From the IMG/VR virus record IMGVR_UViG_3300042549_004140: a stretch of 64,000 nt of DNA; one strand, written 5' to 3'. The notes under the pieces were generated by a model that searched no databases, was not told the DNA's origin, and worked only from the letters and a program-made list of their open reading frames with translations. A program made the translations under genes and the position numbers. Position 1 is the first letter of the stretch. Each line of letters opens with the position of its first letter. The DNA comes from an uncultured virus (IMG/VR IMGVR_UViG_3300042549_004140) (Duplodnaviria; Heunggongvirae; Uroviricota; Caudoviricetes). This document shows positions 28,778-63,119 of this stretch, piece by piece.

Positions 28778-29283
28778 TACCCGCGTTGGCGGGCTTGATA
28801 GATCCAGTCGTGGACAGTTCTCACGTTTACATTAAGAATGTCAGAGAGTAGTTGAGCGATTTCCTTGACTCGGAACTGCTGAGCAAGGCTGTAAGCAGCC
28901 ACAAAACGATCTTTAGCACCGACAAACACCCCAGAATCCACATAGTAAGTGATATGACGTCTGGCAATCTCGAACTTTAGGCTCTTTGTAGGCGTTGAAT
29001 GCACCTTTGCACCCCCGTCATACACGCTTAGAATCAGGTCTAAAACGGTCTTCCGTAAGTGTACGACCTTCTTACTGGCATCTTCCAGTGTCTCACCCCA
29101 CACAGGCACACACAGGGAGCCGACAACCAGTAACTCCCCCTCAAAGTTACCGGACACCCACCACTCAGTACTATAGCCACCATCCGTCTTGATGATTTCA
29201 ACAGTTGCAAAGAACGAATCTCCACCCAGATTTATAATCTCAGGGACGTCGACAGCAACAACTTCAGTAGTTTTGTTTCTCAT
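28777..29283 (-). CDS. Protein with a C-terminal HTH
   Basis: LSDILNVNVRTVHDWIYQARQRG. Confidence 0.65.
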   Translation of the reverse strand: MRNKTTEVVAVDVPEIINLGGDSFFATVEIIKTDGGYSTEWWVSGNFEGELLVVGSLCVPVWGETLEDASKKVVHLRKTVLDLILSVYDGGAKVHSTPTKSLKFEIARRHITYYVDSGVFVGAKDRFVAAYSLAQQFRVKEIAQLLSDILNVNVRTVHDWIYQARQRG

Positions 29284-29302
29284 AGCGCCATCCTACCATA
29301 TC

Positions 29303-29782
29303 TTAGGCAGGAACGTGCGTCACCCAGTAGTAGTTGCACTTCTCGCAGCATGGCTCATTCCACGCGTCCTCCACAGCATTACAGAAGTCCACATAGAAGT
29401 AAGGGTCTTTCTTATAGAGGTTGGCTCTGTGCGTCATAACGACACGATTGAGAGCCTCTGCATTGCTAAACCACTCAGGAAGACCATAGCCCCACATGTG
29501 ACCAGCACGATCACGCAAGGCTCGCAGGTTCTCTACGTTCTTGTCTGTCTTGATGCCTCGGCGGTCAGCCTCTTCAACACACTCGAAGATATAGTTCCAT
29601 AGAGCCACCTCGTGACCTCTCCACATCTTTACTGCAGGGTGATTGCGCCATCCAGCGCGAGGGTCGTCATTACTAAGGACGTTGAGGATCTGGTATCCCT
29701 CAAGGATTTGCTTGTTTAGTCGCTTGCTGTCCAGGGCCTTAGCTGACTCACTGAACTCAATAAAAGGTAGAAATGTTTGCAT
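29303..29782 (-). CDS. Pyrimidine-dimer DNA glycosylase/endonuclease V-like (MSMEG_6728 family)
   Basis: MQTFLP...LD.KRL.KQ..E..QIL...GW.NHPAVKMWRG...HRANL..KDP.FY. Confidence 0.85.
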   Translation of the reverse strand: MQTFLPFIEFSESAKALDSKRLNKQILEGYQILNVLSNDDPRAGWRNHPAVKMWRGHEVALWNYIFECVEEADRRGIKTDKNVENLRALRDRAGHMWGYGLPEWFSNAEALNRVVMTHRANLYKKDPYFYVDFCNAVEDAWNEPCCEKCNYYWVTHVPA

Positions 29783-29953
29783 AGTTAGAAATTAGCACTA
29801 CACAAATAGTTTGTCAAGTCGAAAAACCCCCCGATTTCTCGAGGGGCTTTTCTTGACAGAAAGGAGAAACATGGCTGATAACGTCCATGCTAGTGCTGGC
29901 AACAACTCCCGCACTAACTAAATTGTATCACAATGTTTGCTAAATATGTCGTT

Positions 29954-30145
29954 TTATGCACGAACAACAAAAGCGAATCCAAGCAAGTTCCAGAGAACGT
30001 TGAACATAATAGTGGAGATAACGAACTCCCAAAGAGCACGGTCACGCGACCAGAACAAGATGATGAAGATCCCTAGAAGATAAACAAGAAGTCCCGGAAT
30101 CGAGAACAACCACGGCCCCATAGTAACTACGCCATAAGAATCCAT
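29954..30145 (-). CDS. Small membrane protein
   Basis: Two hydrophobic segments. Confidence 0.55.
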   Translation of the reverse strand: MDSYGVVTMGPWLFSIPGLLVYLLGIFIILFWSRDRALWEFVISTIMFNVLWNLLGFAFVVRA

Positions 30146-30840
30146 TATGGTGCCACGCGTCCGTTCTTGTTGAAGGCTTCATAGGTAAGAGGCATCTTCT
30201 CTGCGAAGTGGCACTCCATCTGCTCAGCAACCATTTCGATTTCACGCTGAGGGAAACTAGGGAAGTGCGTTCCCTCACGGGTAGTACGTAACGACAGGAA
30301 GTTCATCAAAGCACGAGCATTCATAGTTACATACATAGAAGAATACAAACCAACAGGAAGAACTCCACGAGCAATCTCTCGGGCTACACCAGCGTGCAAC
30401 ATCTTCTGATACTCCTCATAGGCAGCCTTGTTCGCATTGTAACTTGAGCGATAAACAGTAGCCAACTGACTAATGTCTCCAAGCTCAAACTCGTAAGCAC
30501 CTGGCTTACCTTTTTGAACCAACTTACGTTCTAGGTTAGGGACGTAGAACACAGGCTCCAGCTCCTTGTAACGTCCACTCTCCTCATTGTAAGAAGCCAT
30601 GCGGTGACGCATAAACTCACGGAACACGAAGATAGGAGCTTCAATGTAGAACGTAAAAGCGTTGTGTTCAAACGGAGAACCATGACGATCTCGCATCAGG
30701 TAGTTGATTAGTCCGGCTTCTTTTTCCGGAGTGCTCTCCACAGCACCAGTTGATACGCGGGCAGCCAGTGTTACTGCCGAGTCCGAAGCCATGCTCTGCA
30801 CAAGCTTAACGGTCATGTCACTGCGGTATTTGATTTCCAT
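30145..30840 (-). CDS. thyX: Flavin-dependent thymidylate synthase
   Basis: HGSPFEH, REFMRHRMASYNEESGRY, NARALMNFLSLR. Confidence 0.97.
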   Translation of the reverse strand: MEIKYRSDMTVKLVQSMASDSAVTLAARVSTGAVESTPEKEAGLINYLMRDRHGSPFEHNAFTFYIEAPIFVFREFMRHRMASYNEESGRYKELEPVFYVPNLERKLVQKGKPGAYEFELGDISQLATVYRSSYNANKAAYEEYQKMLHAGVAREIARGVLPVGLYSSMYVTMNARALMNFLSLRTTREGTHFPSFPQREIEMVAEQMECHFAEKMPLTYEAFNKNGRVAP

Positions 30841-30865
30841 AACGCAATACTAGCACAGCGTTTTG

Positions 30866-31045
30866 TTATTCGTCAATACGAAGATACACAATGGACGTCC
30901 ACGGGTAGAACACAGTATTACGTTTTACCTGAACAAGAACCCCTATTGAACTCTCCTCAATAACTACACCCTCAGCTGCACCCATCTCGATTACATATCG
31001 AAGTCCGATGGAAACCTTTTTTCCGACAAAGGAGTTAGTAGACAA
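30866..31045 (-). CDS. Hypothetical protein (TTG start)
   Basis: Start embedded in the upstream EEPDIVY junction. Confidence 0.6.
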   Translation of the reverse strand: MSTNSFVGKKVSIGLRYVIEMGAAEGVVIEESSIGVLVQVKRNTVFYPWTSIVYLRIDE

Positions 31046-31373
31046 TATCAGGTTCCTCAACATTCATAAGACAAACACGTTCATGTCTAATCTTACACCC
31101 TTCGCTGCAGTACCAAGTCTTACCCTCCCCCACCACAAACCTCTGATCAGACAAATCAAACTCAGACTCGCAGCACTCACAGGTCCTAAAGAACGACATT
31201 GCAGGAGGCTCAAGGCAATCCTCATTATGTAGGAGGATAGGCTCACCAGTATCTACTGCAGCCCACTCACTATAAGTCTCTTCATCTTCATCCGAAAGAT
31301 CTTCACCACATCTAAAGCAGCGGTAGTCCGGCTCAGGGTAATCCTCTATGCCAAACTCAGGCTCAGTAGACAA
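31035..31373 (-). CDS. Cys-rich protein, ends EEPDIVY
   Basis: ORF track; TTG start in the junction motif. Confidence 0.75.
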   Translation of the reverse strand: MSTEPEFGIEDYPEPDYRCFRCGEDLSDEDEETYSEWAAVDTGEPILLHNEDCLEPPAMSFFRTCECCESEFDLSDQRFVVGEGKTWYCSEGCKIRHERVCLMNVEEPDIVY

Positions 31374-31650
31374 TGTCCGGTTCCTCATATTTACCAGGAA
31401 TCAGAGATTCATCTAACCAGCGCTCCACGATACCCCTACGTTCATGCGGCTCAAGGTCCACAAACATTTGATAGGTATATTCAGTGGACTTAACGAGAGC
31501 GTATCTAGCAAACGTATCCTCAGCTATATTCATAGCGCGGTATTTGATTATGTAAGGAACATACTCTCCACCAGTTTCCCCCTGCAGTTCGAGCAGAGGC
31601 TTAGCAAAGAGAACCATACCCTTGTGATTGATTCTAATGTCAGTAGACAA
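31363..31650 (-). CDS. Hypothetical protein, ends EEPDIVY
   Basis: ORF track; TTG start in the junction motif. Confidence 0.75.
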   Translation of the reverse strand: MSTDIRINHKGMVLFAKPLLELQGETGGEYVPYIIKYRAMNIAEDTFARYALVKSTEYTYQMFVDLEPHERRGIVERWLDESLIPGKYEEPDIVY

Positions 31651-31885
31651 TATTTGGCTCCTCACCAAGATTAAGATGACTCACCACTGGTCCAGCAACT
31701 CGAATAAGTTGATTATCAGTCACAGGGTACTCTTTTCCATCTTCCGAAGCAACCATAACTACACGCTCAATATTAAAGCCATAACCACTCGTAACGATAC
31801 GAACAACCTTATAGACGTCAGCGGTGTGTATGTCAGGGCTGTTTTTAAAGACAGCGTAATCCCCAAGCTGTAAATCAGTAGACAA
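31640..31885 (-). CDS. Hypothetical protein, ends EEPNIVY
   Basis: ORF track; TTG start in the junction motif. Confidence 0.75.
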   Translation of the reverse strand: MSTDLQLGDYAVFKNSPDIHTADVYKVVRIVTSGYGFNIERVVMVASEDGKEYPVTDNQLIRVAGPVVSHLNLGEEPNIVY

Positions 31886-32171
31886 TGTCAGGCTCTTCTC
31901 CATTATTTAGGGACGTCGACAAACCTACACCATTACAGGCGTCATACCAAACTTTGATTACGCGAAGCTTCACAGGATTCGCTAACGAGTTAAAAACATC
32001 TTTGTCACGCTTAGTCTTCAAAGCCGAAAGCATGTAAGGCAGAAAAGAAAACGTAATCTCCCCACCACTCATAGCTAGCGAACGCGTCATACCAAAGTTC
32101 AGCTCAATGTCCTCTTTGTAGTTCTTAGCCACAAAAGGAAACCCACCAACTCGAAACTCAAGATCTGCCAT
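31875..32171 (-). CDS. Hypothetical protein, ends EEPDIVY
   Basis: ORF track; start uncertain. Confidence 0.7.
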   Translation of the reverse strand: MADLEFRVGGFPFVAKNYKEDIELNFGMTRSLAMSGGEITFSFLPYMLSALKTKRDKDVFNSLANPVKLRVIKVWYDACNGVGLSTSLNNGEEPDIVY

Positions 32172-32493
32172 AGTCATCTTCCAATCTTTCAATGTCTTCT
32201 TCATGGTACACACCTTTTATGATTTCCGCAACATATCCAACATCACTCCCATCATTGATTAGTCTATGAACCATACCGACGTCGACGATATAGGTTTTGC
32301 CAACCACCAAATCATACATACCAGCGCCTATGCGAGCTGACAGCCCGCCAGTAATCGGACGCCACTCTTCCGAACGAAGAGCGTGAGTTTGCAGCGACAG
32401 GCGCTTTCCAGGAAGCACCTTGAGAATCTTCATGGTAACTTCAGGGCTACTGTAAACAATCATGTAGCCGCCCCAAGGTCTCTCAATAAACAA
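32158..32493 (-). CDS. Cupin, mannose-6-phosphate isomerase type II C-terminal-like
   Basis: ERPWGGY...KILKVLPGKRLSLQTH..RSEEW...HRL.N...EEDIERLEDDYGR. Confidence 0.85.
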   Translation of the reverse strand: MFIERPWGGYMIVYSSPEVTMKILKVLPGKRLSLQTHALRSEEWRPITGGLSARIGAGMYDLVVGKTYIVDVGMVHRLINDGSDVGYVAEIIKGVYHEEDIERLEDDYGRS

Positions 32494-32707
32494 TGTCCGG
32501 CTCCTCTTTGTTAAAAACTCTAGGACTCAGCATACAGTCAATCGCGAAGATGTGGTAGAGCTTTCCATCATCATCTGTAGCGACATTACGAACGCGGTCC
32601 TCGTTGAACCCCTTATAGATAGCTCCATCGCAAACCTTGCACCTAGGCCAAGGGATAGTCTCTATACCGATACTAGAACCAATAGCGTGCTCAGCAATCC
32701 TAGACAA
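32483..32707 (-). CDS. Hypothetical protein, ends EEPDIVY
   Basis: ORF track; TTG start in the junction motif. Confidence 0.7.
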   Translation of the reverse strand: MSRIAEHAIGSSIGIETIPWPRCKVCDGAIYKGFNEDRVRNVATDDDGKLYHIFAIDCMLSPRVFNKEEPDIVY

Positions 32708-32975
32708 TCTCTGGCTCCTCTCCATCACGCTCCGTTGACTTGCTCATCCACTCAGTAACCAAAGCAACCGCCTCACTAGCAGACATACCGTCAATCACGT
32801 CCACGTCCTCCTCCTCCAGTTGCTCGCACAGAGCCTCCAAAGACAACATGAACTGTTGGTTAGGATCCTTTTCCTTAAGGATTACCATCATAGTTTTTAC
32901 AGGAAGATCTAGATACTTAGGGACGTCGACGATTCGATCCCCAATCTTCAACGACACTGTTTCTTTAGTAGACAA
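32700..32975 (-). CDS. Hypothetical protein, ends EEPEIV
   Basis: ORF track; TTG start in the junction motif. Confidence 0.7.
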   Translation of the reverse strand: MSTKETVSLKIGDRIVDVPKYLDLPVKTMMVILKEKDPNQQFMLSLEALCEQLEEEDVDVIDGMSASEAVALVTEWMSKSTERDGEEPEIV

Positions 32976-33183
32976 CGTCTGGCTCCTCACCATTGTTTTC
33001 CGGAATATAAAAGGTGTTCACTACAACAGGACCACCTATGTATTTATCGTAGCACTCATCCGAGCAAATTGCATCTTCAGCCCCGCCCTCCACGACACTA
33101 TCTGCAGCACTGAACTCACGCGCACACTCTCCGCAATACGCGATTCCGTTGTCCCAGTCCGCCTCCATACTTCTCCAGCCCAT
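32965..33183 (-). CDS. Cys-containing protein, ends EEPDVVY
   Basis: ORF track. Confidence 0.7.
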   Translation of the reverse strand: MGWRSMEADWDNGIAYCGECAREFSAADSVVEGGAEDAICSDECYDKYIGGPVVVNTFYIPENNGEEPDVVY

Positions 33184-33338
33184 TAGTAAATCACTTCCTC
33201 TTCTTCACGGTTGAAGCACTCAGGGCTAGAGAAAGTATTCTCAGCAGAGTATCGGCCACAACCACACACACAGCGCGGAGTATTTACAGCCTCGCGGAGG
33301 ATCTCCTCTAGAGACTTCTTACTATACGTTGCGCTCAC
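33183..33338 (-). CDS. Small protein, ends EEEEVIY
   Basis: Read manually: GTG start, CVCGC motif, TAATG overlap with the next gene. Confidence 0.55.
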   Translation of the reverse strand: MSATYSKKSLEEILREAVNTPRCVCGCGRYSAENTFSSPECFNREEEEVIY

Positions 33339-33499
33339 AGCGACTCAACCTTTCTTCCTTACGTTGACGTTTTGCTTGTTCATACAGGCGCTTTTGCTGC
33401 ATCAAACGCTCAAGCTTTATTTGCTTAGCGACGCGCTCACACTCTTTTTGAAAGTCGTTCATATATACATCTTAGGGACGTCGACGACATTTTGTCAAG

Positions 33500-33730
33500 T
33501 CAGAGTTCAGAAAGTTTTTCGTAGACCCAAGAGAGAACTTCTACCGCCACCGAATCTCCGGCAGCATCCTTCTCCCCAATCAGCTCTCGGAGCTTCTCAA
33601 AGAACTCAACGCGCTGACGGTCTTCACCGAGTTGCTCGGCTCTTCTAACTTGGTCCACAGCGTAGGCTTCTAGTTTTTCTAGTTCGAAGTCAATGTCTTC
33701 TAGCCCCGCGGGAGAGTGCGGATCTTTCAT
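33500..33730 (-). CDS. Hypothetical protein
   Basis: ORF track. Confidence 0.6.
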   Translation of the reverse strand: MKDPHSPAGLEDIDFELEKLEAYAVDQVRRAEQLGEDRQRVEFFEKLRELIGEKDAAGDSVAVEVLSWVYEKLSEL

Positions 33731-33749
33731 ACTTCTATTGTAACTTATC

Positions 33750-33824
33750 TGGAGCCCCCAGTGAATTCCGAGATCACAACCTCCGCTTTACAAGAGCGGC
33801 GCTCTACCGTTGAGCTATAAGGGC
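33750..33824 (-). tRNA. tRNA-Thr(UGU) with atypical T-arm
   Basis: Acceptor stem GCCCTTA/TGGGGGC plus TCCA; D arm GCTC/GAGC; anticodon arm CCGCT-CTTGTAA-AGCGG. Confidence 0.9.
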
Positions 33825-34074
33825 AGTTTGCCAGATGAATCCTTACTGGCGTGTCCGGAACCGTTCCGGCAAGGCGCATAGAAGAACCACCAAATAGCGC
33901 CTGATTCGAGATTATTCTAGCACACCTAGTCAGTCAACCTTTGCAGAACATCAAGCTGTGCTTCAATAAGGTCTAGTTTCTCACGGAGCACTTTCAAAGT
34001 AATCTCCACAATCTCAATCTTCTCTCCAAGGATTTCCCTCTGGACGTCGACGTTTTCGTTTTCTGACATAAGCC

Positions 34075-34605
34075 CTAGATTCCTTGCCTTCCTTGAGTCC
34101 AGTCAATCTTTCTACCAGAGGCTACAGCCTCTTTCACTCTACGCAACCTACCAGAGATTATGTCTTTAGATGTACCAAGCAGCTTTCCGATCTCGCTCAA
34201 TGAGAGGTCTGGATTATTGATTCGCGCCTGAAGTATGTCAAAGGTCTCCAGAGGCATACCTTCCCGTTGCTCTTCTAGGGCCTGCTTGTATAGGTGAATG
34301 CTTGCCTCCAAAGCCATTCTTGGCCGGTCAGCGTTTACGGCCCTGGCCACTACCAATGCATGACCTTTCGGCTTGTCAGTGCCCCTGGCAACTCGGCGTC
34401 TCTCCCTCTCCGTTAGACCACCCCAGACTCCAACTTCATCAAGCATTGTCAGCCCCATGTCTCGACACTCCTTTTGAACAGGGCATCTCATGCAAATAGA
34501 CTTTGCATAACGCAGGGTCTCGCGGTCATAGGCACCATCATCATCTGGAAAGAAGACGTCCAAATCTTTTTCGTCTTTGCAGACTCCTTGAGTCATATCA
34601 AACAT
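34075..34605 (-). CDS. whiB: WhiB-family regulator fused to a WhiA-like C-terminal HTH
   Basis: C..FFP..AKSICMRCPVQKEC..GVWGGLTERERR, then ARINNPDLSLSEIGKLLGTSKDIISGRLRR. Confidence 0.85.
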   Translation of the reverse strand: MFDMTQGVCKDEKDLDVFFPDDDGAYDRETLRYAKSICMRCPVQKECRDMGLTMLDEVGVWGGLTERERRRVARGTDKPKGHALVVARAVNADRPRMALEASIHLYKQALEEQREGMPLETFDILQARINNPDLSLSEIGKLLGTSKDIISGRLRRVKEAVASGRKIDWTQGRQGI

Positions 34606-34851
34606 TTATTTCTTAACCTTCTTTTTCTCCGCGATGCGAACTTTCTCGATATAGCGATCTGCCCACTTAGTGAAACTAACGACTAGGGTAATAACTATCC
34701 CAGCCGCCACAAAAAGCAGGAAGATCTGAATCTCAAGGACCTGGGTAGCTGCATAAACAAATAGCCCAAGCAGCCCAAAAAGAGCAGCGCCAAGCACAAC
34801 GTAAACAGTTGTCATCCACGAACGTGCGACATAGTATTTCCAGTCTCTCAC
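34606..34851 (-). CDS. 2-TM membrane protein
   Basis: Hydrophobic helices and a basic tail. Confidence 0.65.
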   Translation of the reverse strand: MRDWKYYVARSWMTTVYVVLGAALFGLLGLFVYAATQVLEIQIFLLFVAAGIVITLVVSFTKWADRYIEKVRIAEKKKVKK

Positions 34852-35093
34852 TCGTTCTCTCCGTCTCTATCAAACTCAACCTTGTCCGAAAACGCAATCT
34901 CGTCAATCAAGTCATTTAGGTCGTTGACTGACATTGACCCCTTAAGGACGTCGACCATCTCAGACATCTTACGCTCTAGGATAGTCAGCGTGCGCTCGCG
35001 CTCAACCTTAGTCGCGTGACAGATGGGGCAACCCATGTCGTCAGCAGGGTCCCAGCTCCAACCATGTACTTCACACTCACTACTTAGTGCCAT
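34848..35093 (-). CDS. Hypothetical protein
   Basis: CEVH...CPIC; coupled ORF. Confidence 0.65.
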   Translation of the reverse strand: MALSSECEVHGWSWDPADDMGCPICHATKVERERTLTILERKMSEMVDVLKGSMSVNDLNDLIDEIAFSDKVEFDRDGENE

Positions 35094-35529
35094 TAACTCT
35101 CTCCTTATAGTCTTTCAGAATCCAGCTCGAGCTGTTCTTCTTGTCTTCCCCACCTACGCCAAAAACGAAGTGAAGTCTTTCCGACTCTACCACCATCTCA
35201 GGGATATTCTCAAGCGTCCTATCCCCGCCATTGGCAAAGATAACCTCGTCCTCAGGGTAAAGCTCGAGAACCTGCTTAATCGCGTCTATTGCTGTACCAT
35301 CTGCGTCATCAAACTCAATAACGACGTCGACAGACTTGAACTCCTCAATGATGCCGCCACGCTCGTCAAAGGGCATGAAAGGCTCACCTTTCTTGCGAGC
35401 CAACCAAGCGTCCGAGTTGACTCCAACAATAAGGACGTCGCCCAACCCACGCGCGGCTCGGATGTACGAGATGTGACCGGAGTGCACAGGGTCGAACCCT
35501 CCGGTCACCAGAACAATCTTTTTAGGCAA
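35080..35529 (-). CDS. Cytidylyltransferase-family nucleotidyltransferase
   Basis: TGGFDPVHSGH, VGVNSD.WL.RKKG.PFM, FANGGDR, KKNSSSWIL; probable TTG start. Confidence 0.9.
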   Translation of the reverse strand: MPKKIVLVTGGFDPVHSGHISYIRAARGLGDVLIVGVNSDAWLARKKGEPFMPFDERGGIIEEFKSVDVVIEFDDADGTAIDAIKQVLELYPEDEVIFANGGDRTLENIPEMVVESERLHFVFGVGGEDKKNSSSWILKDYKERVNGTK

Positions 35530-35691
35530 TGTTAAGTTCCTTCTTAACGAACTGCCAGAAGTCCTCCATGTCCTCGATATAGATTTCATCGCTGACTTCC
35601 TGGACGTCGCCACTTCGCTTTTCGCGGAAGTAGTGCATTGAGCACATCCCCCGCCCAAAAACCTTTTTCTCGCAACTGTCAATCTTGCACA

Positions 35692-36015
35692 CTACTTCTG
35701 CTCTCCTAGCATCTCTAGTATCTGTCTTTTCAGGTCCGATAGCGCAATGTCTCCACGCATCGGAGGGTTTTTCATCATCTTGTCAATCAGGTCCAGAATC
35801 TCTTCTGTTTCCGATAGTTTCCTTATGGACGTCGACAAATCGGTCTCGAAGACCTCATCATTCGACATGGACTTACCACAGTTGCATACATACTTGGCTC
35901 CACCTTGCGGAGTCTTGTAGAAGGTGTGAATGTGCTCATCCAGAGAATACTCTTCAGTATCCTTAGCTTTCAGCGGATTGTACTTGCTGAACAGTTCAAA
36001 GAAATCTTTACTCAT
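35692..36015 (-). CDS. Hypothetical protein
   Basis: ORF track. Confidence 0.6.
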   Translation of the reverse strand: MSKDFFELFSKYNPLKAKDTEEYSLDEHIHTFYKTPQGGAKYVCNCGKSMSNDEVFETDLSTSIRKLSETEEILDLIDKMMKNPPMRGDIALSDLKRQILEMLGEQK

Positions 36016-36234
36016 ATCTACATCTTACATCCCCCCAAAGAAATATGTCAAATCAGCACGAACGCGCGGATCTAGCTCCGACACAACTTATCACGAAGCT
36101 TCGTTCAAACTTCTACCGGACGTCGAGATTTTATTATATAAAGTATCATATTGTACAGAAAAGGCCCCCCGAAGGGAGCCTCTTTTGTGCGTGTAAACTT
36201 AAACCTAAACTATTTATAATCTTATACGGTTTTA

Positions 36235-36924
36235 CTAGCTGAGCCTGTCATATATGTTTTTTACACTAGTTGGATACCACTTACCACCATTAGATGTAGG
36301 TACGCTATCCTTATTTAAACCCGCGGCTATTTTACCAAAACTAGTACCAGACCTACGCTCCGCTAAAATCCTATCCTTTACCTCTTTAGGCGTTTTATCC
36401 TTGGGGCCAACATCCATCCCCCACACCAACCCGCTATCCCTAAGGCTTTGATGTCTACCTTTAGCTTTTTCACTCATTAACTTGATCTGCTCTTCAGTGA
36501 AGACATGCTTAGGCCTGCTCATAGTCCTATCCCTCTGAGCCGCCCTCTTTTCCGGAGTCCAGTAGGCCCTAATCTTTTCTATAGACTCACTAGTGTGAGA
36601 CCCGCCAACAAAACCATCTCCGCCATCAGTGACATTAAGTAGACTAGAATCTTTTACTCGATAGTCGCTAATATGAGAAGCCTCTAAGACGCAGGCTTCA
36701 TCCCAGGATAGGCCAGACTCTAGTATCACATACCCAATAGAGAATCCATCTGACTCATGTCTGTTTATCCATTTGTAGACCGGAAGATGTTTTACCTTAT
36801 TGCCGTTTCTAGCCGAGCTAAGGTGGGCAGCAAATCTTTTATCAGCATTCTCATATTTACTAATCCCAATGTAACGAATCCTATCAGGCTCTTTAGTTGA
36901 GAATAAACCATATACGCAGCTCAT
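36235..36924 (-). CDS. GIY-YIG-like endonuclease with a recombinase-type C-terminal DNA-binding domain
   Basis: VYGL...RYIGIS...RF..H...E...LLN.T.GGDG, a NUMOD-like HTSESIEKI segment, and a C-terminus homologous to the 55142 ORF. Confidence 0.75.
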   Translation of the reverse strand: MSCVYGLFSTKEPDRIRYIGISKYENADKRFAAHLSSARNGNKVKHLPVYKWINRHESDGFSIGYVILESGLSWDEACVLEASHISDYRVKDSSLLNVTDGGDGFVGGSHTSESIEKIRAYWTPEKRAAQRDRTMSRPKHVFTEEQIKLMSEKAKGRHQSLRDSGLVWGMDVGPKDKTPKEVKDRILAERRSGTSFGKIAAGLNKDSVPTSNGGKWYPTSVKNIYDRLS

Positions 36925-36961
36925 AACTCTAGTATATCTTAACTTTATATGACTGACTTAT

Positions 36962-37231
36962 TTAGCCTAATACAGCGAAGACATCTTCTTCTGCAAGGAC
37001 TAGGTATTCCTTAGATCCAAGGGTCAGGGTAGTGCCAGCGTACTTCGAGTAGATTACGGTGTCGCCTACAGCGATGTCCTCTACCTTACTGCCGATGGCA
37101 ACTACTTCACCCTGCTGCGGCTTCTCCTGCGCTACGTCTGGAATGATTAGTCCAGAGGCAGTTGTCTGCTCTGCATCTTTCTGCAGGATGGCAACTCGGT
37201 TGCCGATTGGCTTAATCTTGATCTGACTCAT
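36962..37231 (-). CDS. groES: Co-chaperonin GroES
   Basis: IKPIGNRV, TTASGLIIPD.AQEKPQQGEVVAIG, VGDTVIYSKYAGT. Confidence 0.95.
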   Translation of the reverse strand: MSQIKIKPIGNRVAILQKDAEQTTASGLIIPDVAQEKPQQGEVVAIGSKVEDIAVGDTVIYSKYAGTTLTLGSKEYLVLAEEDVFAVLG

Positions 37232-37556
37232 TGAGTTCTTCTTTCTTATCTTTTAACTTCTGCTTGTATTCAGCAGCAAGGTTCTGTACGGTTTGGTTCT
37301 TGTAGTGGACTGTCTTTACTCGGTCCAGCTTGAAGCTTCGCATCTGCTCAGCCCCCTTCTTTCCGCCCCACACATCTAACCACTCGGTTGTCGGAGTGAC
37401 AATGTATTGGACAAATCTATAACGCCCACGCTCCCCGCGTATCTTCAGCTCGGTTCCCTTGCTGACGTTCCTCCCGTTGATCTGCATCTCCAGGATGTAC
37501 TTCCAGCTGTCGTTAGGGCGAGGTCCTTCAGGACCCTTGCTCTTTTTCCTACCCAC
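37212..37556 (-). CDS. Hypothetical protein
   Basis: GTELKIRGERGRYRF; operon context. Confidence 0.7.
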   Translation of the reverse strand: MGRKKSKGPEGPRPNDSWKYILEMQINGRNVSKGTELKIRGERGRYRFVQYIVTPTTEWLDVWGGKKGAEQMRSFKLDRVKTVHYKNQTVQNLAAEYKQKLKDKKEELNESDQD

Positions 37557-38110
37557 TATACCTCATTCCCCCAAACGCTCCAACCTTCCATTGGACGTCT
37601 GGCAAACATCTCCAGCTTTGTAGCGTCTGGGTATAGACGCTCAATCCTGCGGTGGACCTCGTCCGGCTTCCGCGAATGCTCCATCTTAGCAGCAAGAATA
37701 GTATGAGGCACACCCTCATCTGAAATAGGCAGCGGTCTGCCTTTAGGAATGTTCGAAGCAACCAGCACGTACTCGGCTGTTGGCTTCACTACGCTTGGGC
37801 GAACACCCTGCGCCCCGATTGGAGTAACTCCATCCGCCCTGGTCTTAATCCAGGTGAACGCTACCCCACGATAAGTTAGCCCCCAATGCCGGAGAAGATC
37901 GATGGCAAAGTCCAAGCGAGGAGAGGTAACCCACATAAAAACCACTCCAGGCTTTTCCAAAATGCCCTTGATGTCCATTGCCATCAGATCTTCGTCCGAC
38001 ATAGTCGGATAGAACTTCGCAGCTGCACCCATCTTATCCTGGGCACCATAATAAGACCAGGGTGGATCCATAAGGATAACCTGGTACTTAGAGTCTGGAA
38101 GTTCGGTCAC
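37556..38110 (-). CDS. MT-A70-family adenine methyltransferase
   Basis: YQVILMDPPW, FMWVT, WG..Y....F.WIK, HSRKP, LEMFAR..GW.VWGNE. Confidence 0.92.
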   Translation of the reverse strand: MTELPDSKYQVILMDPPWSYYGAQDKMGAAAKFYPTMSDEDLMAMDIKGILEKPGVVFMWVTSPRLDFAIDLLRHWGLTYRGVAFTWIKTRADGVTPIGAQGVRPSVVKPTAEYVLVASNIPKGRPLPISDEGVPHTILAAKMEHSRKPDEVHRRIERLYPDATKLEMFARRPMEGWSVWGNEV

Positions 38111-38112
38111 GA

Positions 38113-38484
38113 CTACTTCTGGTGAATCATTAGGTCTAGGCCATTGTCTGGGTGGTATGACCACTCAGCCTCAAAGCCGTCCCAGTCACCAGTCTGCTTA
38201 CCGTCAAGAGCACGAGTAGTCTCGATACTGTTGATGATAAACTCAGGCATCTTGATACGCTGCGACTGAACTACGCAGACGATATCATCGATGTTGGCAC
38301 CAGTGTATTCGTCTTCACCCATCATGTCTAGGGACAGGGTCTTACCTTCGTCACCAATCCGAAAACCGTCAGACAGGTTGCACTCTTCAGAAACCTTCTG
38401 AAGTGTGGTAGGCCCTGCAGCGCATCCGGAAAGTGTTGCTGCCAATAGGCCAGCGATGCCAAAAATGGCAAGTGTCTTTTTCAT
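38113..38484 (-). CDS. Lipoprotein
   Basis: Lipobox LSGC after a hydrophobic signal. Confidence 0.8.
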   Translation of the reverse strand: MKKTLAIFGIAGLLAATLSGCAAGPTTLQKVSEECNLSDGFRIGDEGKTLSLDMMGEDEYTGANIDDIVCVVQSQRIKMPEFIINSIETTRALDGKQTGDWDGFEAEWSYHPDNGLDLMIHQK

Positions 38485-38621
38485 ACGTCTTCTATCATTG
38501 AGGGGACATGCTTATCATAGCACACAAAATAAAAACCTCATCCGAAGATGAGGCTTTATCCCCAGGCATCGAGCCGACCGTCCGGACGGCCATTACCTGT
38601 TCGACCGCCTAACGGTCTGGT

Positions 38622-38964
38622 TAGTGGAGATGGGGGCATCCGAGAGCCCCGTCCGCTAAATATTTAATCGTTCTTCTACAAGCTTAGGCAGTTTATATTT
38701 CCAGGACCGAACTGCCACATCCTGTGGTGCTGGGGTTTAACGTCCACAGCATCGACGTACTACAGGTTGTTCTACTTATTTAGAACCTGACTGCCCAGCT
38801 AGAACTACTGCTTTGTCAGGGGCCTTAGCGGAGTAGCGAGGCTACGCTGCTAGTGCGAATGCGGAACGTGAGTTTGCATTTAGGGGTTTGCCACACTTAA
38901 GAGTGCGTGGCCGTCTCTGCTTGCTTCACCGACTTCAGATTTAACGTCGAAACCTGTCATCCCC
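38622..38964 (-). ncRNA. ssrA: tmRNA; tag peptide ANSRSAFALAA
   Basis: 5' GGGGATGACAGGTTTCGAC pairs with 3' CATCTCC-A including G3-U70; tag ORF 38877-38842. Confidence 0.95.
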
Positions 38965-38985
38965 GTGAACACTATTCAGTTGTAA

Positions 38986-39381
38986 TTAAAGTGTAGCAGA
39001 TTTTTGCGCATCGCGCCAGCTGAGGATGTGTTCTTCTTTACATGTAAAGCAGCGGCAACCATTCTCAAACTTTTCTGCTGTACCACAAGCGAGAAGGGCA
39101 GCTTCGCCATTCTTGCTGTTCTGGAGAGCAGTCTTGTCTTCGTGACACGACTCACACAGAACTTGGCAGTCCTTAAGCTCTTTCTTACGAACCTCTTCGC
39201 TACGAGACCAGATGTCTCGAGGATTGAAGGTCTTGTTGTCTTGGTCCTTGTGATCAACTTCAAGGTTCCGAGTAGAGCCACACTTGACGCACTTACCGCC
39301 CTTGGACTCAATCCACTCGCGTTTGCGTTTAGTTACAAAGGCGAGCTGGTAGTCGCGTTTCTTTTTTCCTGTATAGCCCAT
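38986..39381 (-). CDS. HNH endonuclease
   Basis: CVKCG...LEVDH...CQVLCESCH..KT. Confidence 0.85.
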   Translation of the reverse strand: MGYTGKKKRDYQLAFVTKRKREWIESKGGKCVKCGSTRNLEVDHKDQDNKTFNPRDIWSRSEEVRKKELKDCQVLCESCHEDKTALQNSKNGEAALLACGTAEKFENGCRCFTCKEEHILSWRDAQKSATL

Positions 39382-41220: not shown

Positions 41221-41547
41221 TTATGTATGACGACGAGACGGTATGATTGGCGTGATACGAAGACCGCGACGAATCTTTGAGCGATCAATCTCAGTGGTTC
41301 CGCCCCAGATTCCTTCAAGTTCAGGACGCTTCATAGCGTAGGCACGACACGCGTGCATGTACTCACAGCCACCGCATATCTTCTTAGCTTCACGCTCGTA
41401 GGTGTATCGCCCGCGAGCCTTCTTCATCGAGCCCTCCGGAGCATCTTCCGAGAAAAATGCTTCAGGGTTAGACTCTGTGCAAGGAGGCGGACCATACAGC
41501 TCGAAGTCTGGGTAGTCTTCTTCTGGCTGGAATACAAAAATTGTCAT
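41221..41547 (-). CDS. whiB: WhiB-family regulator
   Basis: C...PEAFF...AKKICGGC....C......GIWGGTTE.DR. Confidence 0.9.
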   Translation of the reverse strand: MTIFVFQPEEDYPDFELYGPPPCTESNPEAFFSEDAPEGSMKKARGRYTYEREAKKICGGCEYMHACRAYAMKRPELEGIWGGTTEIDRSKIRRGLRITPIIPSRRHT

Positions 41548-62152: not shown

Positions 62153-62580
62153 TGAATACTCCAGTTGTTTACACAGGAGGCACATTCGATCTCCCGCACC
62201 CAGGGCACTATCGACTCTTAGAACGAGCTGCAGACTTTGGCAAGGTTGTGGTAGCCCTAAACACAGACGAGTTTATCTACAACTACAAGGGAAAATACCC
62301 AGTTCTGACCTACAACGAACGCGAAGAGATTCTAATGGCCTGTAAATGGGTAGACCGCGTGATCCCAAACTTTGGCGGGGAGGACTCAACTATTTCGATT
62401 GATATGGTAAAGCCAGACTACATTATTATTGGGTCCGACTGGGCACGTAGAGACTACTACAAGCAAATGGGGTTTACTCAAGACTGGCTTGACGAGCGCG
62501 GGATTGGACTCATCTACGTGCCGTACACAAAAGGCATAAGTAGTACCGACATTAAGAAACGTATGAAGGATCTAGACTAA
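62152..62580 (+). CDS. Glycerol-3-phosphate cytidylyltransferase-like (TagD family)
   Basis: YTGGTFDLPHPGH, VALNTDEF, GSDW, YT.GISSTDIK. Confidence 0.9.
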   Translation: MNTPVVYTGGTFDLPHPGHYRLLERAADFGKVVVALNTDEFIYNYKGKYPVLTYNEREEILMACKWVDRVIPNFGGEDSTISIDMVKPDYIIIGSDWARRDYYKQMGFTQDWLDERGIGLIYVPYTKGISSTDIKKRMKDLD

Positions 62581-63119
62581 AAAAGTCTACCATCCAAGTC
62601 TTCTTCTAGCTCAGCAGCCTCTGCTGCAGCAATAGCTTCTAACTCTTTACGAAGTTTCTTTTCCGCAATCATAGATTTATAAGCATTTACAGCATTAGCA
62701 CTAGTGCGACTTCTCCAAGTAAATCCGCAGTCAGTACAACTGACAAGTCTAACTGTAGTCCAACGACCACCGTCCGGGTTCTCAGCAATCACTGGCTCAA
62801 GCTTTTTAGCTGTAGCACCGCAAAAAAGACACTGAGGGTAGCGGTCCCTGCGAATCTCAGCTCCGTCTGCATTTACAGATAAAGTACGACGAATCTCGTG
62901 CTCGTCTTTGCCTCCCCATATCCCCCAGATCTGGCTATTCTCTAGAGCCCACTTGATGCAATCTTTACGAACGGGGCAGAGGGCGCAGATACTCCGAGCA
63001 ACTGCTTTTTCCTTAGGATCTTCGGAAAAGAAAAATTCTACCTTTTCCATATTTTTATTTTTAGCGCACTCTGCATCAGACTGCCAATCCATGTCCTTGC
63101 TAGGAACCCATTCAACCAT
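62577..63119 (-). CDS. whiB: WhiB-family regulator with a C-terminal Zn ribbon
   Basis: WQSDAEC...FF...ARSICALCPVRKDC...WGIWGG, then CLFC...CTDC. Confidence 0.9.
   Translation of the reverse strand: MVEWVPSKDMDWQSDAECAKNKNMEKVEFFFSEDPKEKAVARSICALCPVRKDCIKWALENSQIWGIWGGKDEHEIRRTLSVNADGAEIRRDRYPQCLFCGATAKKLEPVIAENPDGGRWTTVRLVSCTDCGFTWRSRTSANAVNAYKSMIAEKKLRKELEAIAAAEAAELEEDLDGRLF

Follow-up and report, generated by a model that had tools for sequence, protein, structure and literature searches.

The G53-C61 closing pair and the T54-A58 pair are textbook near-invariants of tRNA and tmRNA. Among known departures, the T loop of eukaryotic initiator tRNA has A54 and A60, and the T-loop motif is also found in RNase P, rRNA and riboswitches. 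All of these retain A58, together with a 54-58 contact that is not Watson-Crick. Like the variants described here, they depart naturally from T54 and the elbow or T-loop fold still forms, whereas in the variants position 58 varies as well and all four Watson-Crick combinations of 54 and 58 are used. Phage tRNAs that escape host anticodon nucleases likewise depart from the tRNAs of the host at loop positions that are usually conserved. There, however, the changes lie in the anticodon loop and the nuclease has been demonstrated; here the change lies in the T loop, affects a minority of the tRNAs of each phage, and is not known to be tied to a nuclease.

Compared with canonical tRNA (Rfam RF00005), the variant tRNAs have the same cloverleaf, 7/4/5/5-type stems, G18 G19, U55 C56 R57, 5-nt variable loop and isotype marks (e.g., G3:U70 in the Ala member). 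They differ in having U/U at 53:61, a covarying Watson-Crick 54:58 combination, and a D loop of 7 nt in 62 of 69 and 101 of 102 sequences (among the matches listed). The variant tmRNAs resemble the one-piece (RF00023) and permuted (RF04321) families in G3:U70, the GGAC junction, an ALAA-ending tag and a full-length match. On the other hand, they have an 8-nt T loop with C:G instead of G:C as its closing pair and with an internal Watson-Crick N:N' pair, and the copy studied here ends in CUA. The same tRNA frame and scaffold occur in two tRNAs of cultured phages, the tRNA-Val(UAC) of Rhodococcus phage Francesca and the tRNA-Asn(GUU) of Salmonella phage GEC_vB_MG, with U53/U61 flanks, AA at 59-60 and a 7-nt D loop. 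In contrast to the tRNA-Thr described below, both carry U54:A58, which explains why they are annotated normally. A search of main article texts, few of them from subscription journals, found neither C54:G58 nor a phage tRNA or tmRNA with this loop described.

The tRNA-Thr and tmRNA genes

The window (the whole 64,000-nt stretch analyzed here, IMG/VR record IMGVR_UViG_3300042549_004140) is part of the genome of an uncultured virus, a probable lake phage of an actinobacterial host. It was compared with its nearest record (G001, 36% complete by CheckV) and with IMG/VR relatives. DNA runs from lakes or other freshwater contain the stretch in 24 cases, and at least half of its words are present in 15 of these; no RNA runs are listed for positions 33700-39000. 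Because the T arms of both the tRNA and the tmRNA recur unchanged in independent IMG/VR contigs and the stretch recurs in these 24 DNA runs, the two genes (Table 1) are not an assembly accident.

Table 1. Positions of the two RNA genes and associated features in the window.
Feature	Position	Strand	Description	Basis
tRNA-Thr(UGU)	33753..33824	(-)	72 nt, full cloverleaf	Rfam RF00005, MFE fold, compensatory stem changes
tRNA-Thr T arm	33761..33777	(-)	4 bp stem, GUGA-U-CUCGGAA-U-UCAC	
Encoded 3' CCA	33750..33752	(-)	follows discriminator U73 of tRNA-Thr	sequence
tmRNA (ssrA)	38622..38964	(-)	one-piece, 343 nt, ends ACUA	Rfam RF00023
tmRNA T arm	38633..38650	(-)	8-nt loop UCUCGGAU on a 5 bp stem with C:G as closing pair	sequence
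tmRNA tag frame	38842..38877	(-)	ANSRSAFALAA-stop	translation; at Rfam tag region position
Terminator-like hairpin	38532..38557	(-)	11 pairs and T run, 65 nt downstream of tmRNA	consensus scan only

The tRNA-Thr gene matches RF00005 with 51.2 bits (gathering threshold 29; model positions 1-71), its minimum free energy (MFE) fold is the cloverleaf, and its 7-nt D loop (AACGGUA) contains G18 and G19. The T arm reads U53, C54 U55 C56 G57 G58 A59 A60, U61, so that both the G53-C61 closing pair and the T54-A58 pair are absent (U53/U61 and C54/G58 take their places). These two pairs, though near-invariant in tRNA, are not family-defining for RF00005. An identical T arm was found in 26 viral contigs with unrelated flanks, across which the acceptor and anticodon stems of the variant tRNA-Thr show compensatory changes. 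An encoded CCA, as in the window copy, is present in 31 of the 69 unique tRNAs of this class among the matches listed. The tRNA is predicted to read ACA/ACN threonine codons; ACA makes up 29.8% of the 1037 Thr codons in the long frames of the window.

The tmRNA gene matches RF00023 over the full model (1-374) with 98.1 bits against a gathering threshold of 47, and the same gene is present in G001 and two further IMG/VR contigs. It contains the G3:U70 alanine identity pair in its acceptor stem (GGGGAUG pairs with CAUCUCC) and a tag frame whose resume codon specifies alanine and whose hydrophobic ALAA end is followed by a stop. Its T arm, GGGGC-UCUCGGAU-GCCCC, lacks the canonical 7-nt T loop. 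This type of T arm recurs at 29 viral loci, on both one-piece and permuted tmRNAs, and C-UCUCGGAU-G is constant across eight different covarying T stems. In cultured phages, nothing related to this tmRNA was found beyond a 48-nt stretch. The gene does not encode CCA, ending instead in ACUA, a single C-to-U change common to the close relatives of the window; among the matches listed, the 42 unique variant tmRNA T arms are followed by CCA in 31 cases and CTA in nine. Hosts that add CCA post-transcriptionally would be expected to repair such an end. SmpB was not found among the 90 frames of the window, which covers part of the phage genome, and is expected to be supplied by the host. The first-pass annotation had described one non-canonical T loop in both RNAs, the departure of their T arms from G53/T54/A58/C61, and an ACTA in place of an ACCA end; the sequence bears out all three, and the Rfam placement of both genes supports the first.

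Covariation of positions 54 and 58

Both RNAs have CUCGG at T-loop positions 54-58. Judged from their sequences, the two loops are C:G alleles of a proposed alternative T-loop class, written U-N-UCG-N'-A(A)-U, in which U55 C56 G57 are invariant and the bases at 54 and 58 complementary (C54:G58 in the tRNA, C:G in the tmRNA). A generic-pattern search of viral contigs returned at least 119 loci, of which at least 97 passed a cloverleaf test, representing at least 69 unique tRNA sequences; among the matches listed, these 69 cover 11 anticodons and 12 complementary T stems. When only UCUCGGA was fixed in the pattern, AU were the next two bases in 67 of the 69 unique real tRNAs (among the matches listed), which extends the conserved loop module to nine bases. 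The likeness of the two loops thus exceeds chance, given this AU and the constancy of C-UCUCGGAU-G across the eight tmRNA T stems.

In the wider frame, in which only U53 and AAU61 flank the variable positions, the unique tRNAs among the matches listed comprise 67 with C:G, 59 with U:A, 39 with A:U and two with G:C at 54:58, against two G/G and two C/A mismatches. An alignment (A1) of 146 tRNA rows was pre-filtered for stem pairing and unfiltered on 54:58. In A1, 54:58 is paired in 143 of 146 tRNAs (C:G 55, U:A 50, A:U 36, G:C 2), and G18, G19, U55 and C56 are invariant columns among the 146 sequences. In these stem-filtered rows, 99.0% of stem cells are paired, compared with 63.0% in shuffles, and 17 of 21 stem pairs show double changes. 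Within one Thr lineage, two members (L033 and L310) differ at three of 72 bases, two of which are 54 and 58. In the phage tmRNAs, which include one-piece and permuted genes, N and N' are complementary in all 42 unique T arms among the matches listed (A:U 26, C:G 12, U:A 4). These tRNA and tmRNA allele frequencies come from the matches listed, with A1 stem-filtered, and are not population estimates. By all these comparisons, positions 54 and 58 covary as a Watson-Crick pair throughout the tRNA and tmRNA class.

Since U55, C56 and G18/G19 are retained, the elbow contact should survive. A study of a plant RNase P reports that, on a minimal substrate, U54C or A58G alone cut cleavage 7- to 47-fold (PMC4797305); such in vitro harm from single changes fits a need for paired change. 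A further 40 unique tRNAs combine C54:G58 with an ordinary G53:C61 (35) or with A53:U61 (five). These sequences, together with others that have a non-A59, contradict a model in which U53 pairs with A59, the helix runs without interruption up to a UCG triloop, and A60/U61 bulge out. Nearest-neighbour folding of the T arms yields the outer stem only and predicts no extra loop stability.

Distribution in phages and bacteria

In other phages, the distribution of the variant tRNA-Thr is independent of that of the variant tmRNA. Three relatives (G002, G003 and G004) combine the variant tRNA-Thr with a tmRNA of canonical type; in two (G005 and G007) the tmRNA is the variant and tRNA-Thr(UGU) is canonical. 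Large phages carry one to four variant tRNAs among 22-50 each, the rest being canonical. The low share of variants and their independent distribution argue against genome-wide remodelling: the coordinated elbow remodelling that the first-pass annotation had proposed for this phage does not hold. On the question it raised, whether all phage tRNAs share the loop, the other tRNAs of relatives are canonical.

The variant tRNA form was absent from 401 Chloroflexota and 401 Actinomycetota genomes, and wider tRNA patterns gave 0/151 and 0/101 in bacterial genomes; as a positive control, the search returned 108 canonical matches in five genomes. A form so frequent in viral contigs and absent from the bacteria searched could reflect phage-specific selection rather than neutral descent. 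That one loop recurs on tRNAs of 11 anticodons and on tmRNAs of both the one-piece and the permuted form suggests repeated gain or exchange, and a purely neutral account explains this recurrence on diverse scaffolds less easily. Among 50,697 GenBank phage records, a C:G T-arm query found no match at E-values up to 10.

Across 185,579 species genomes, the tmRNA pattern occurred in 11 places: six in Chloroflexia, one in a Chitinophagales MAG, and four in coding DNA. The Chitinophagales match is an extra tmRNA copy, and the four coding-DNA matches are due to chance. In four Chloroflexia genomes the variant is the sole tmRNA over the cut-off, and within the same order the 8-nt variant was present, as three alleles, in nine of 31 T arms inspected. 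As the native and sole tmRNA of some Chloroflexia, the variant needs no phage factor. Within the same 185,579 genomes the pattern was absent from Actinomycetota, the likely host phylum, and the loop was therefore not simply copied from the host.

Explanations and significance

It is probable that both genes encode working translation RNAs with alternative T-loop alleles, that no phage-specific helper is needed, and that their co-occurrence is coincidental. Both would be expressed and aminoacylated, the tmRNA serving in the rescue of stalled ribosomes. A Watson-Crick 54:58 pair (here C54:G58) would stand in place of the reverse-Hoogsteen T54-A58, and a U/U juxtaposition would replace, or add to, the usual G53-C61 closing pair. 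With U55, C56 and G57 invariant, the loop would still dock on G18/G19 and the elbow would form, and a loop with C54 and G58 would be unable to bear m5U54 or m1A58. The two variant genes would belong to separate lineages circulating widely among phages, so that finding both in one phage would be the coincidence of two common phage alleles and not a coordinated adaptation.

That the genes are functionless, either decaying copies or integration leftovers (partial tRNA or tmRNA of the attP type), is very improbable. ARAGORN calls no gene in the window, missing both, and the tmRNA lacks an encoded CCA; yet both genes are full length, which argues against an integration-site fragment, and their Rfam scores exceed the thresholds. 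In addition, the tag frame is unbroken, and covariation of the stems is seen in many contigs. That ARAGORN misses them is due to the allele, as the program calls only 14 of 55 C:G tRNAs of the alternative frame and all 50 U:A tRNAs. The earlier argument against decay is thus upheld by the conservation of both genes with compensatory stem changes. Avoidance of TTCGAA restriction sites was likewise rejected, because the window contains 12 such sites (about 16 expected) and relatives keep TTCGAA in other tRNAs.

T-loop-cleaving toxins exist, and phage tRNAs escape anticodon nucleases through loop changes. A loop with a Watson-Crick 54:58 pair might similarly escape a T-loop-directed RNase that cleaves canonical T-Psi-C loops, so that the variant RNAs survive infection. 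Such an enzyme might come from the host, as an anti-phage nuclease or a toxin, or from the phage itself as a weapon against the host. The absence of the tRNA form from all 802 bacterial genomes (against the canonical control matches), its abundance in viral contigs and the recurrence of one loop on unrelated scaffolds speak for such an escape, which is nonetheless doubtful. A general T-loop nuclease should press on all the tRNAs of a phage and not on one to four of 22-50, while the many isotypes do not fit an isoacceptor-specific one. Moreover, variant tRNA and variant tmRNA are unlinked across phages, and the variant is the native, sole tmRNA of some Chloroflexia. Within the window (a partial genome), no nuclease, RNA ligase or other RNA-repair gene, and no tRNA-modifying gene, was seen. 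Evasion of a nuclease or of modification had been offered in the first-pass annotation as an interpretation, of which the nuclease part is poorly supported. Similarly unlikely is the broader proposition that the tRNA elbow forms a second front of phage-host conflict beside the anticodon loop, with some hosts or phages destroying or disabling canonical T-Psi-C RNAs and the Watson-Crick 54:58 RNAs as resistant versions.

It is also conceivable, with rather low probability, that a hard-wired 54:58 pair lets the elbow form quickly without the m5U54 and m1A58 enzymes, or without chaperoning by T-loop enzymes, as would suit RNAs that work within one short infection cycle. By established chemistry, neither m5U nor m1A can be formed at C54 and G58; U55 and C56 are retained, and the tRNA form is biased to phages. 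The pair also matters, since a T-loop-dependent reaction in vitro suffers when 54 or 58 alone is altered (PMC4797305). However, the U:A allele, which could still be modified, is about as common (59 unique tRNAs among the matches listed), most tRNAs in the same phages are canonical, and nearest-neighbour folding gives the loop no extra stability.

Working RNAs with alternative T-loop alleles would have several implications. Hundreds of phage tRNAs replace T54-A58 with a covarying pair and keep U55 and C56, as do tmRNAs from dozens of phage loci and some of those native to Chloroflexia, indicating that there is a second way to build the elbow. For structural biology they provide a natural series of compensated T-loop variants, and for research on tRNA modification and RNase P they provide substrates without m5U54 and m1A58 sites. 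They also expose an annotation blind spot, and because ARAGORN overlooks most C:G members, the numbers of tRNAs counted in phages are probably too low. Should selection be the cause of the phage bias of the tRNA form, this would suggest that hosts or phages have a T-loop-directed activity so far unrecognised.

T arms of the tRNA-Thr and tmRNA genes

Two RNA genes of the window carry T loops that depart from the canonical arrangement, in which G53:C61 closes the stem and T54 and A58 form a reverse-Hoogsteen pair. Both genes are recovered by Rfam, and ARAGORN called neither of them on the window. The tRNA has a UGU (Thr) anticodon, a 7-nt D loop that retains G18 and G19, an AGGUU variable loop and a discriminator U followed by an encoded CCA, and its minimum-energy fold is a cloverleaf. 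Its T arm consists of four Watson-Crick pairs, then U53, C54, U55, C56, G57, G58, A59, A60, and U61. The tmRNA is full-length and bears the G3:U70 alanine mark; its T arm has five pairs, with C:G closing an 8-nt loop (UCUCGGAU), and a terminator-like hairpin, recognized by consensus match only, lies 65 nt downstream. The first-pass annotation thus described the anatomy of both T arms accurately. The tmRNA ends in ACUA, a one-base change that the nearest relatives of the window have in common: among at least 42 unique variant tmRNA T arms, CCA follows 31 and CTA follows 9. Such an end should be repairable through trimming and CCA addition.

Features of the window discussed in the text
Feature	Position	Strand	Basis or remark
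tRNA-Thr	33753-33824	-	Rfam, 51.2 bits (threshold 29)
Encoded CCA of tRNA-Thr	33750-33752		sequence
tmRNA	38622-38964	-	Rfam, 98.1 bits (threshold 47)
tmRNA tag frame, ANSRSAFALAA-stop	38842-38877	-	translation
WhiB-family gene	34075-34605		fused to WhiA-type HTH
WhiB-family gene	41221-41547		
WhiB-family gene	62577-63119		
Homing-endonuclease-like gene	36235-36924		phrog_314, weak Recombinase domain
MT-A70 methyltransferase gene	37556-38164		

A 22-nt stretch covering the variable loop and T arm of the tRNA was found in 26 IMG/VR contigs, in which the flanks are unrelated and the acceptor and anticodon stems differ compensatorily (GCCCUUA/UGGGGGC, GCUCCAA/UUGGAGC, and GCCUCAA/UUGAGGC). By these comparisons, the window-type tRNA is under selection. 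A generic pattern that fixed only the common D arm and UCUCGGA matched at least 119 loci, the tRNA scans being confined to isotypes with this D arm. A cloverleaf test (T stem 4/4 pairs, acceptor at least 6/7, anticodon stem at least 4/5) was passed by 97 of the 119 listed loci, representing at least 69 unique sequences; the 22 loci that failed look like chance matches. The 69 unique tRNAs listed include at least 12 distinct complementary T stems, the D loop is 7 nt long in 62 of them, and positions 53-61 read UCUCGGAAU in 67 and UCUCGGAAC in 2. Their anticodons are mostly Thr UGU (31), Ile GAU (9), Val UAC (8), Met CAU (6), and Phe GAA (5), with Asn and Pro (3 each) and Trp, His, Ala, and Val GAC (1 each) being rarer.

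Proposed pairing of positions 54 and 58

Other 54:58 combinations were sought in the same frame (U53, and AAU at 59-61). C:G was present in at least 67 unique sequences, U:A in at least 59, A:U in at least 39 (mostly tRNA-Asn), and G:C in at least 2, while G/G occurred in at least 2 and C/A in 2 (3 loci); neither U/G nor any further combination was seen among the matches listed for this frame. When 146 unique members of 72 nt were aligned, with rows pre-filtered on stem pairing and not on 54:58, these positions formed a standard pair in 143 (CG 55, UA 50, AU 36, GC 2). The whole structure is 99.0% paired, as compared with 36-47% in slid controls and 63.0% after shuffling (as high in 0 of 500 shuffles), a figure that is partly obtained by construction because the rows were stem-filtered. 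Two sequences of one tRNA-Thr lineage (L033 and L310) differ at 3 of 72 bases, two of which are 54 and 58 (C:G vs. A:U). Positions 54 and 58 of the tRNA are therefore proposed here, on covariation, as a predicted Watson-Crick pair.

Forty further unique C54:G58 tRNAs with ordinary 59-60 have G53:C61 (35) or A53:U61 (5). Position 53 thus still lies opposite 61, and a first structural model, in which U53 paired with A59, was excluded. A54 with U58 was likewise observed in the G53:C61 frame at two loci of phage record G007 (G007:C1:55560-55632 and G007:C1:153437-153509) and in Francesca tRNA-Pro (L255 10090-10161), the T loops being AUCGUUG, AUCGUAC, and AUCGUUC; the 54:58 swap is therefore not confined to the U53/U61 frame. 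In one in vitro study (PMC4797305), a plant protein-only RNase P cleaved a minimal substrate 7- to 47-fold less well when it carried U54C or A58G singly.

For the tmRNA, a degenerate pattern with a free T stem and closing pair matched 29 viral loci, in which eight distinct covarying T stems carry the loop; all have C-UCUCGGAU-G except one, with UCUCGGAG. Variant tmRNAs occur both as one-piece (L003, L006, L007, L062, L064, L079, L084) and as permuted two-piece molecules (L004, L005, L059, L060, L065, L066, L069, L071, L075, L077, L085, L087), and L072 gave no tmRNA match in this architecture check. Freeing the inner positions yielded at least 114 loci and at least 43 unique sequences; of the 43 listed, 42 have a perfect T stem. 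The inner pair is complementary in all 42, being A:U (26), C:G (12) or U:A (4). This is the pairing rule of the tRNA, and the two loops are thus one module, U-N-UCG-N'-A(A)-U, set on a 4-bp stem as a 9-nt loop in tRNA and on a 5-bp stem as an 8-nt loop in tmRNA.

Distribution among phages and cellular genomes

The first-pass annotation had read the shared loop as convergent elbow remodelling, and had proposed checking whether all phage tRNAs share it. They do not: where a large or complete phage has a variant tRNA, 1-4 of its 22-50 tRNAs are of this type. The two variants are also found separately, which speaks against a coordinated change in this phage; three phage records (G002, G003, G004) combine a variant tRNA-Thr with a canonical tmRNA T arm, two (G005, G007) combine a variant tmRNA with a canonical tRNA-Thr(UGU), and the remaining tRNAs of these five are canonical or deviate in other ways. 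Both variants occur together only in the window, its nearest record G001 and two IMG/VR contigs. G001 (59.5 kb, rated 36% complete) has the same single tRNA and tmRNA as the window.

One phage record, G823, has four class members side by side with differing alleles, as expected of tandem duplication. The same record contains a tRNA-Ile(GAU) (L279, G823:C1:36531-36601) with the T loop AGCGUUA (A54, G55, U58) and the D loop AAAAGUA, which is without the usual GG pair; the 18:55 elbow contact may have covaried here. An Rfam tRNA match of 121 nt (L279/L276, G823:C1:36318-36438) is longer by about 48 bases in the anticodon region, where there may be an intervening sequence.

A C:G T-arm query had no match in 50,697 GenBank phage records, and the U:A allele of this frame is found in tRNA-Val of Rhodococcus phage Francesca and tRNA-Asn of Salmonella phage GEC_vB_MG. 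ARAGORN detected 14 of 55 C:G, 50 of 50 U:A and 33 of 36 A:U members of the alignment, and its misses may explain why the C:G allele went unnoticed. An annotated tRNA-Ile of GEC_vB_MG (L629 550-622) has another non-canonical elbow, with the T loop AGCAAAG (A54, G55).

Bacterial tRNA searches spanned two phyla, Chloroflexota and Actinomycetota. The variant pattern was present in 0 of 401 genomes of each, and wider patterns were likewise missing from two sets of Actinomycetota genomes (0 of 151; 0 of 101); a canonical version, as control, gave 108 matches in five genomes (24 in the unpublished G419). Across 185,579 species genomes, the tmRNA pattern matched six Chloroflexia MAGs, one Chitinophagales MAG and four chance sequences. 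The Chitinophagales copy is extra and phage-like: this third, low-scoring tmRNA (L094, G015:C75:43833-44191) is directly followed by a tRNA, two other tmRNAs score higher, and it probably belongs to a prophage, or to phage DNA that was assigned to the bin of this MAG.

In four of the six Chloroflexia genomes the variant is the sole tmRNA above the cut-off; the design thus works in ordinary cells and needs no factor from a phage. A tmRNA was found in 33 of 40 genomes of their order. The 31 T arms taken comprise 20 canonical (one from an unpublished genome) and 9 with the 8-nt variant, 2 others from unpublished genomes being left out of inspection (unpublished set: G825, G826, G846). The nine variants are UCUCGGAU (6), UAUCGUAU (2), and UUUCGAAU (1), the last two types being the A:U and U:A alleles of native tmRNAs (L656, L657, and L641, from G841, G835, and G836). 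As these alleles stand beside canonical-loop relatives in the same order, the switch took place inside a bacterial lineage.

The phage, its likely host and the origin of the loops

The window is phage DNA, encoding endolysin-like proteins, a collagen-like tail fibre and a primase, together with a class I ribonucleotide reductase, NrdI, a glutaredoxin-like protein, ThyX, SSB, GroES, an MT-A70 methyltransferase and, between the tRNA and the tmRNA, the homing-endonuclease-like gene. The three WhiB-family genes, DUF3039 and NrdI point to an actinobacterial host, judging by where such families are known to occur. The stretch is contained in lake-water and freshwater metagenome runs. The 8-mer GGACGTCG has 12 copies (20780-60232; about 1.3 expected, 12 reached in 0 of 100 shuffles), all on the + strand where most genes lie on the - strand, and 10 of the 12 fall within 29244-36125. 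This motif may have a role in regulation or be related to methylation; the window also has the MT-A70 gene.

The bias of the tRNA form towards phages can be read in three ways. Evasion of a nuclease as the selected benefit is a reading that we consider unlikely; among the window genes, no SmpB, tRNA-modifying enzyme, RNA ligase or tRNA nuclease was recognized, and the lack of the last two tells against it. Folding that is independent of modification is a benefit we regard as equally doubtful. The remaining weight goes to descent inside the gene pool of phages, with constraint relaxed, as the probable account of the bias. For the two RNAs themselves, the best-supported reading is that both are functional, with an alternative T loop closed by a Watson-Crick pair that would keep the elbow contacts, and that they represent two independent phage gene lineages.
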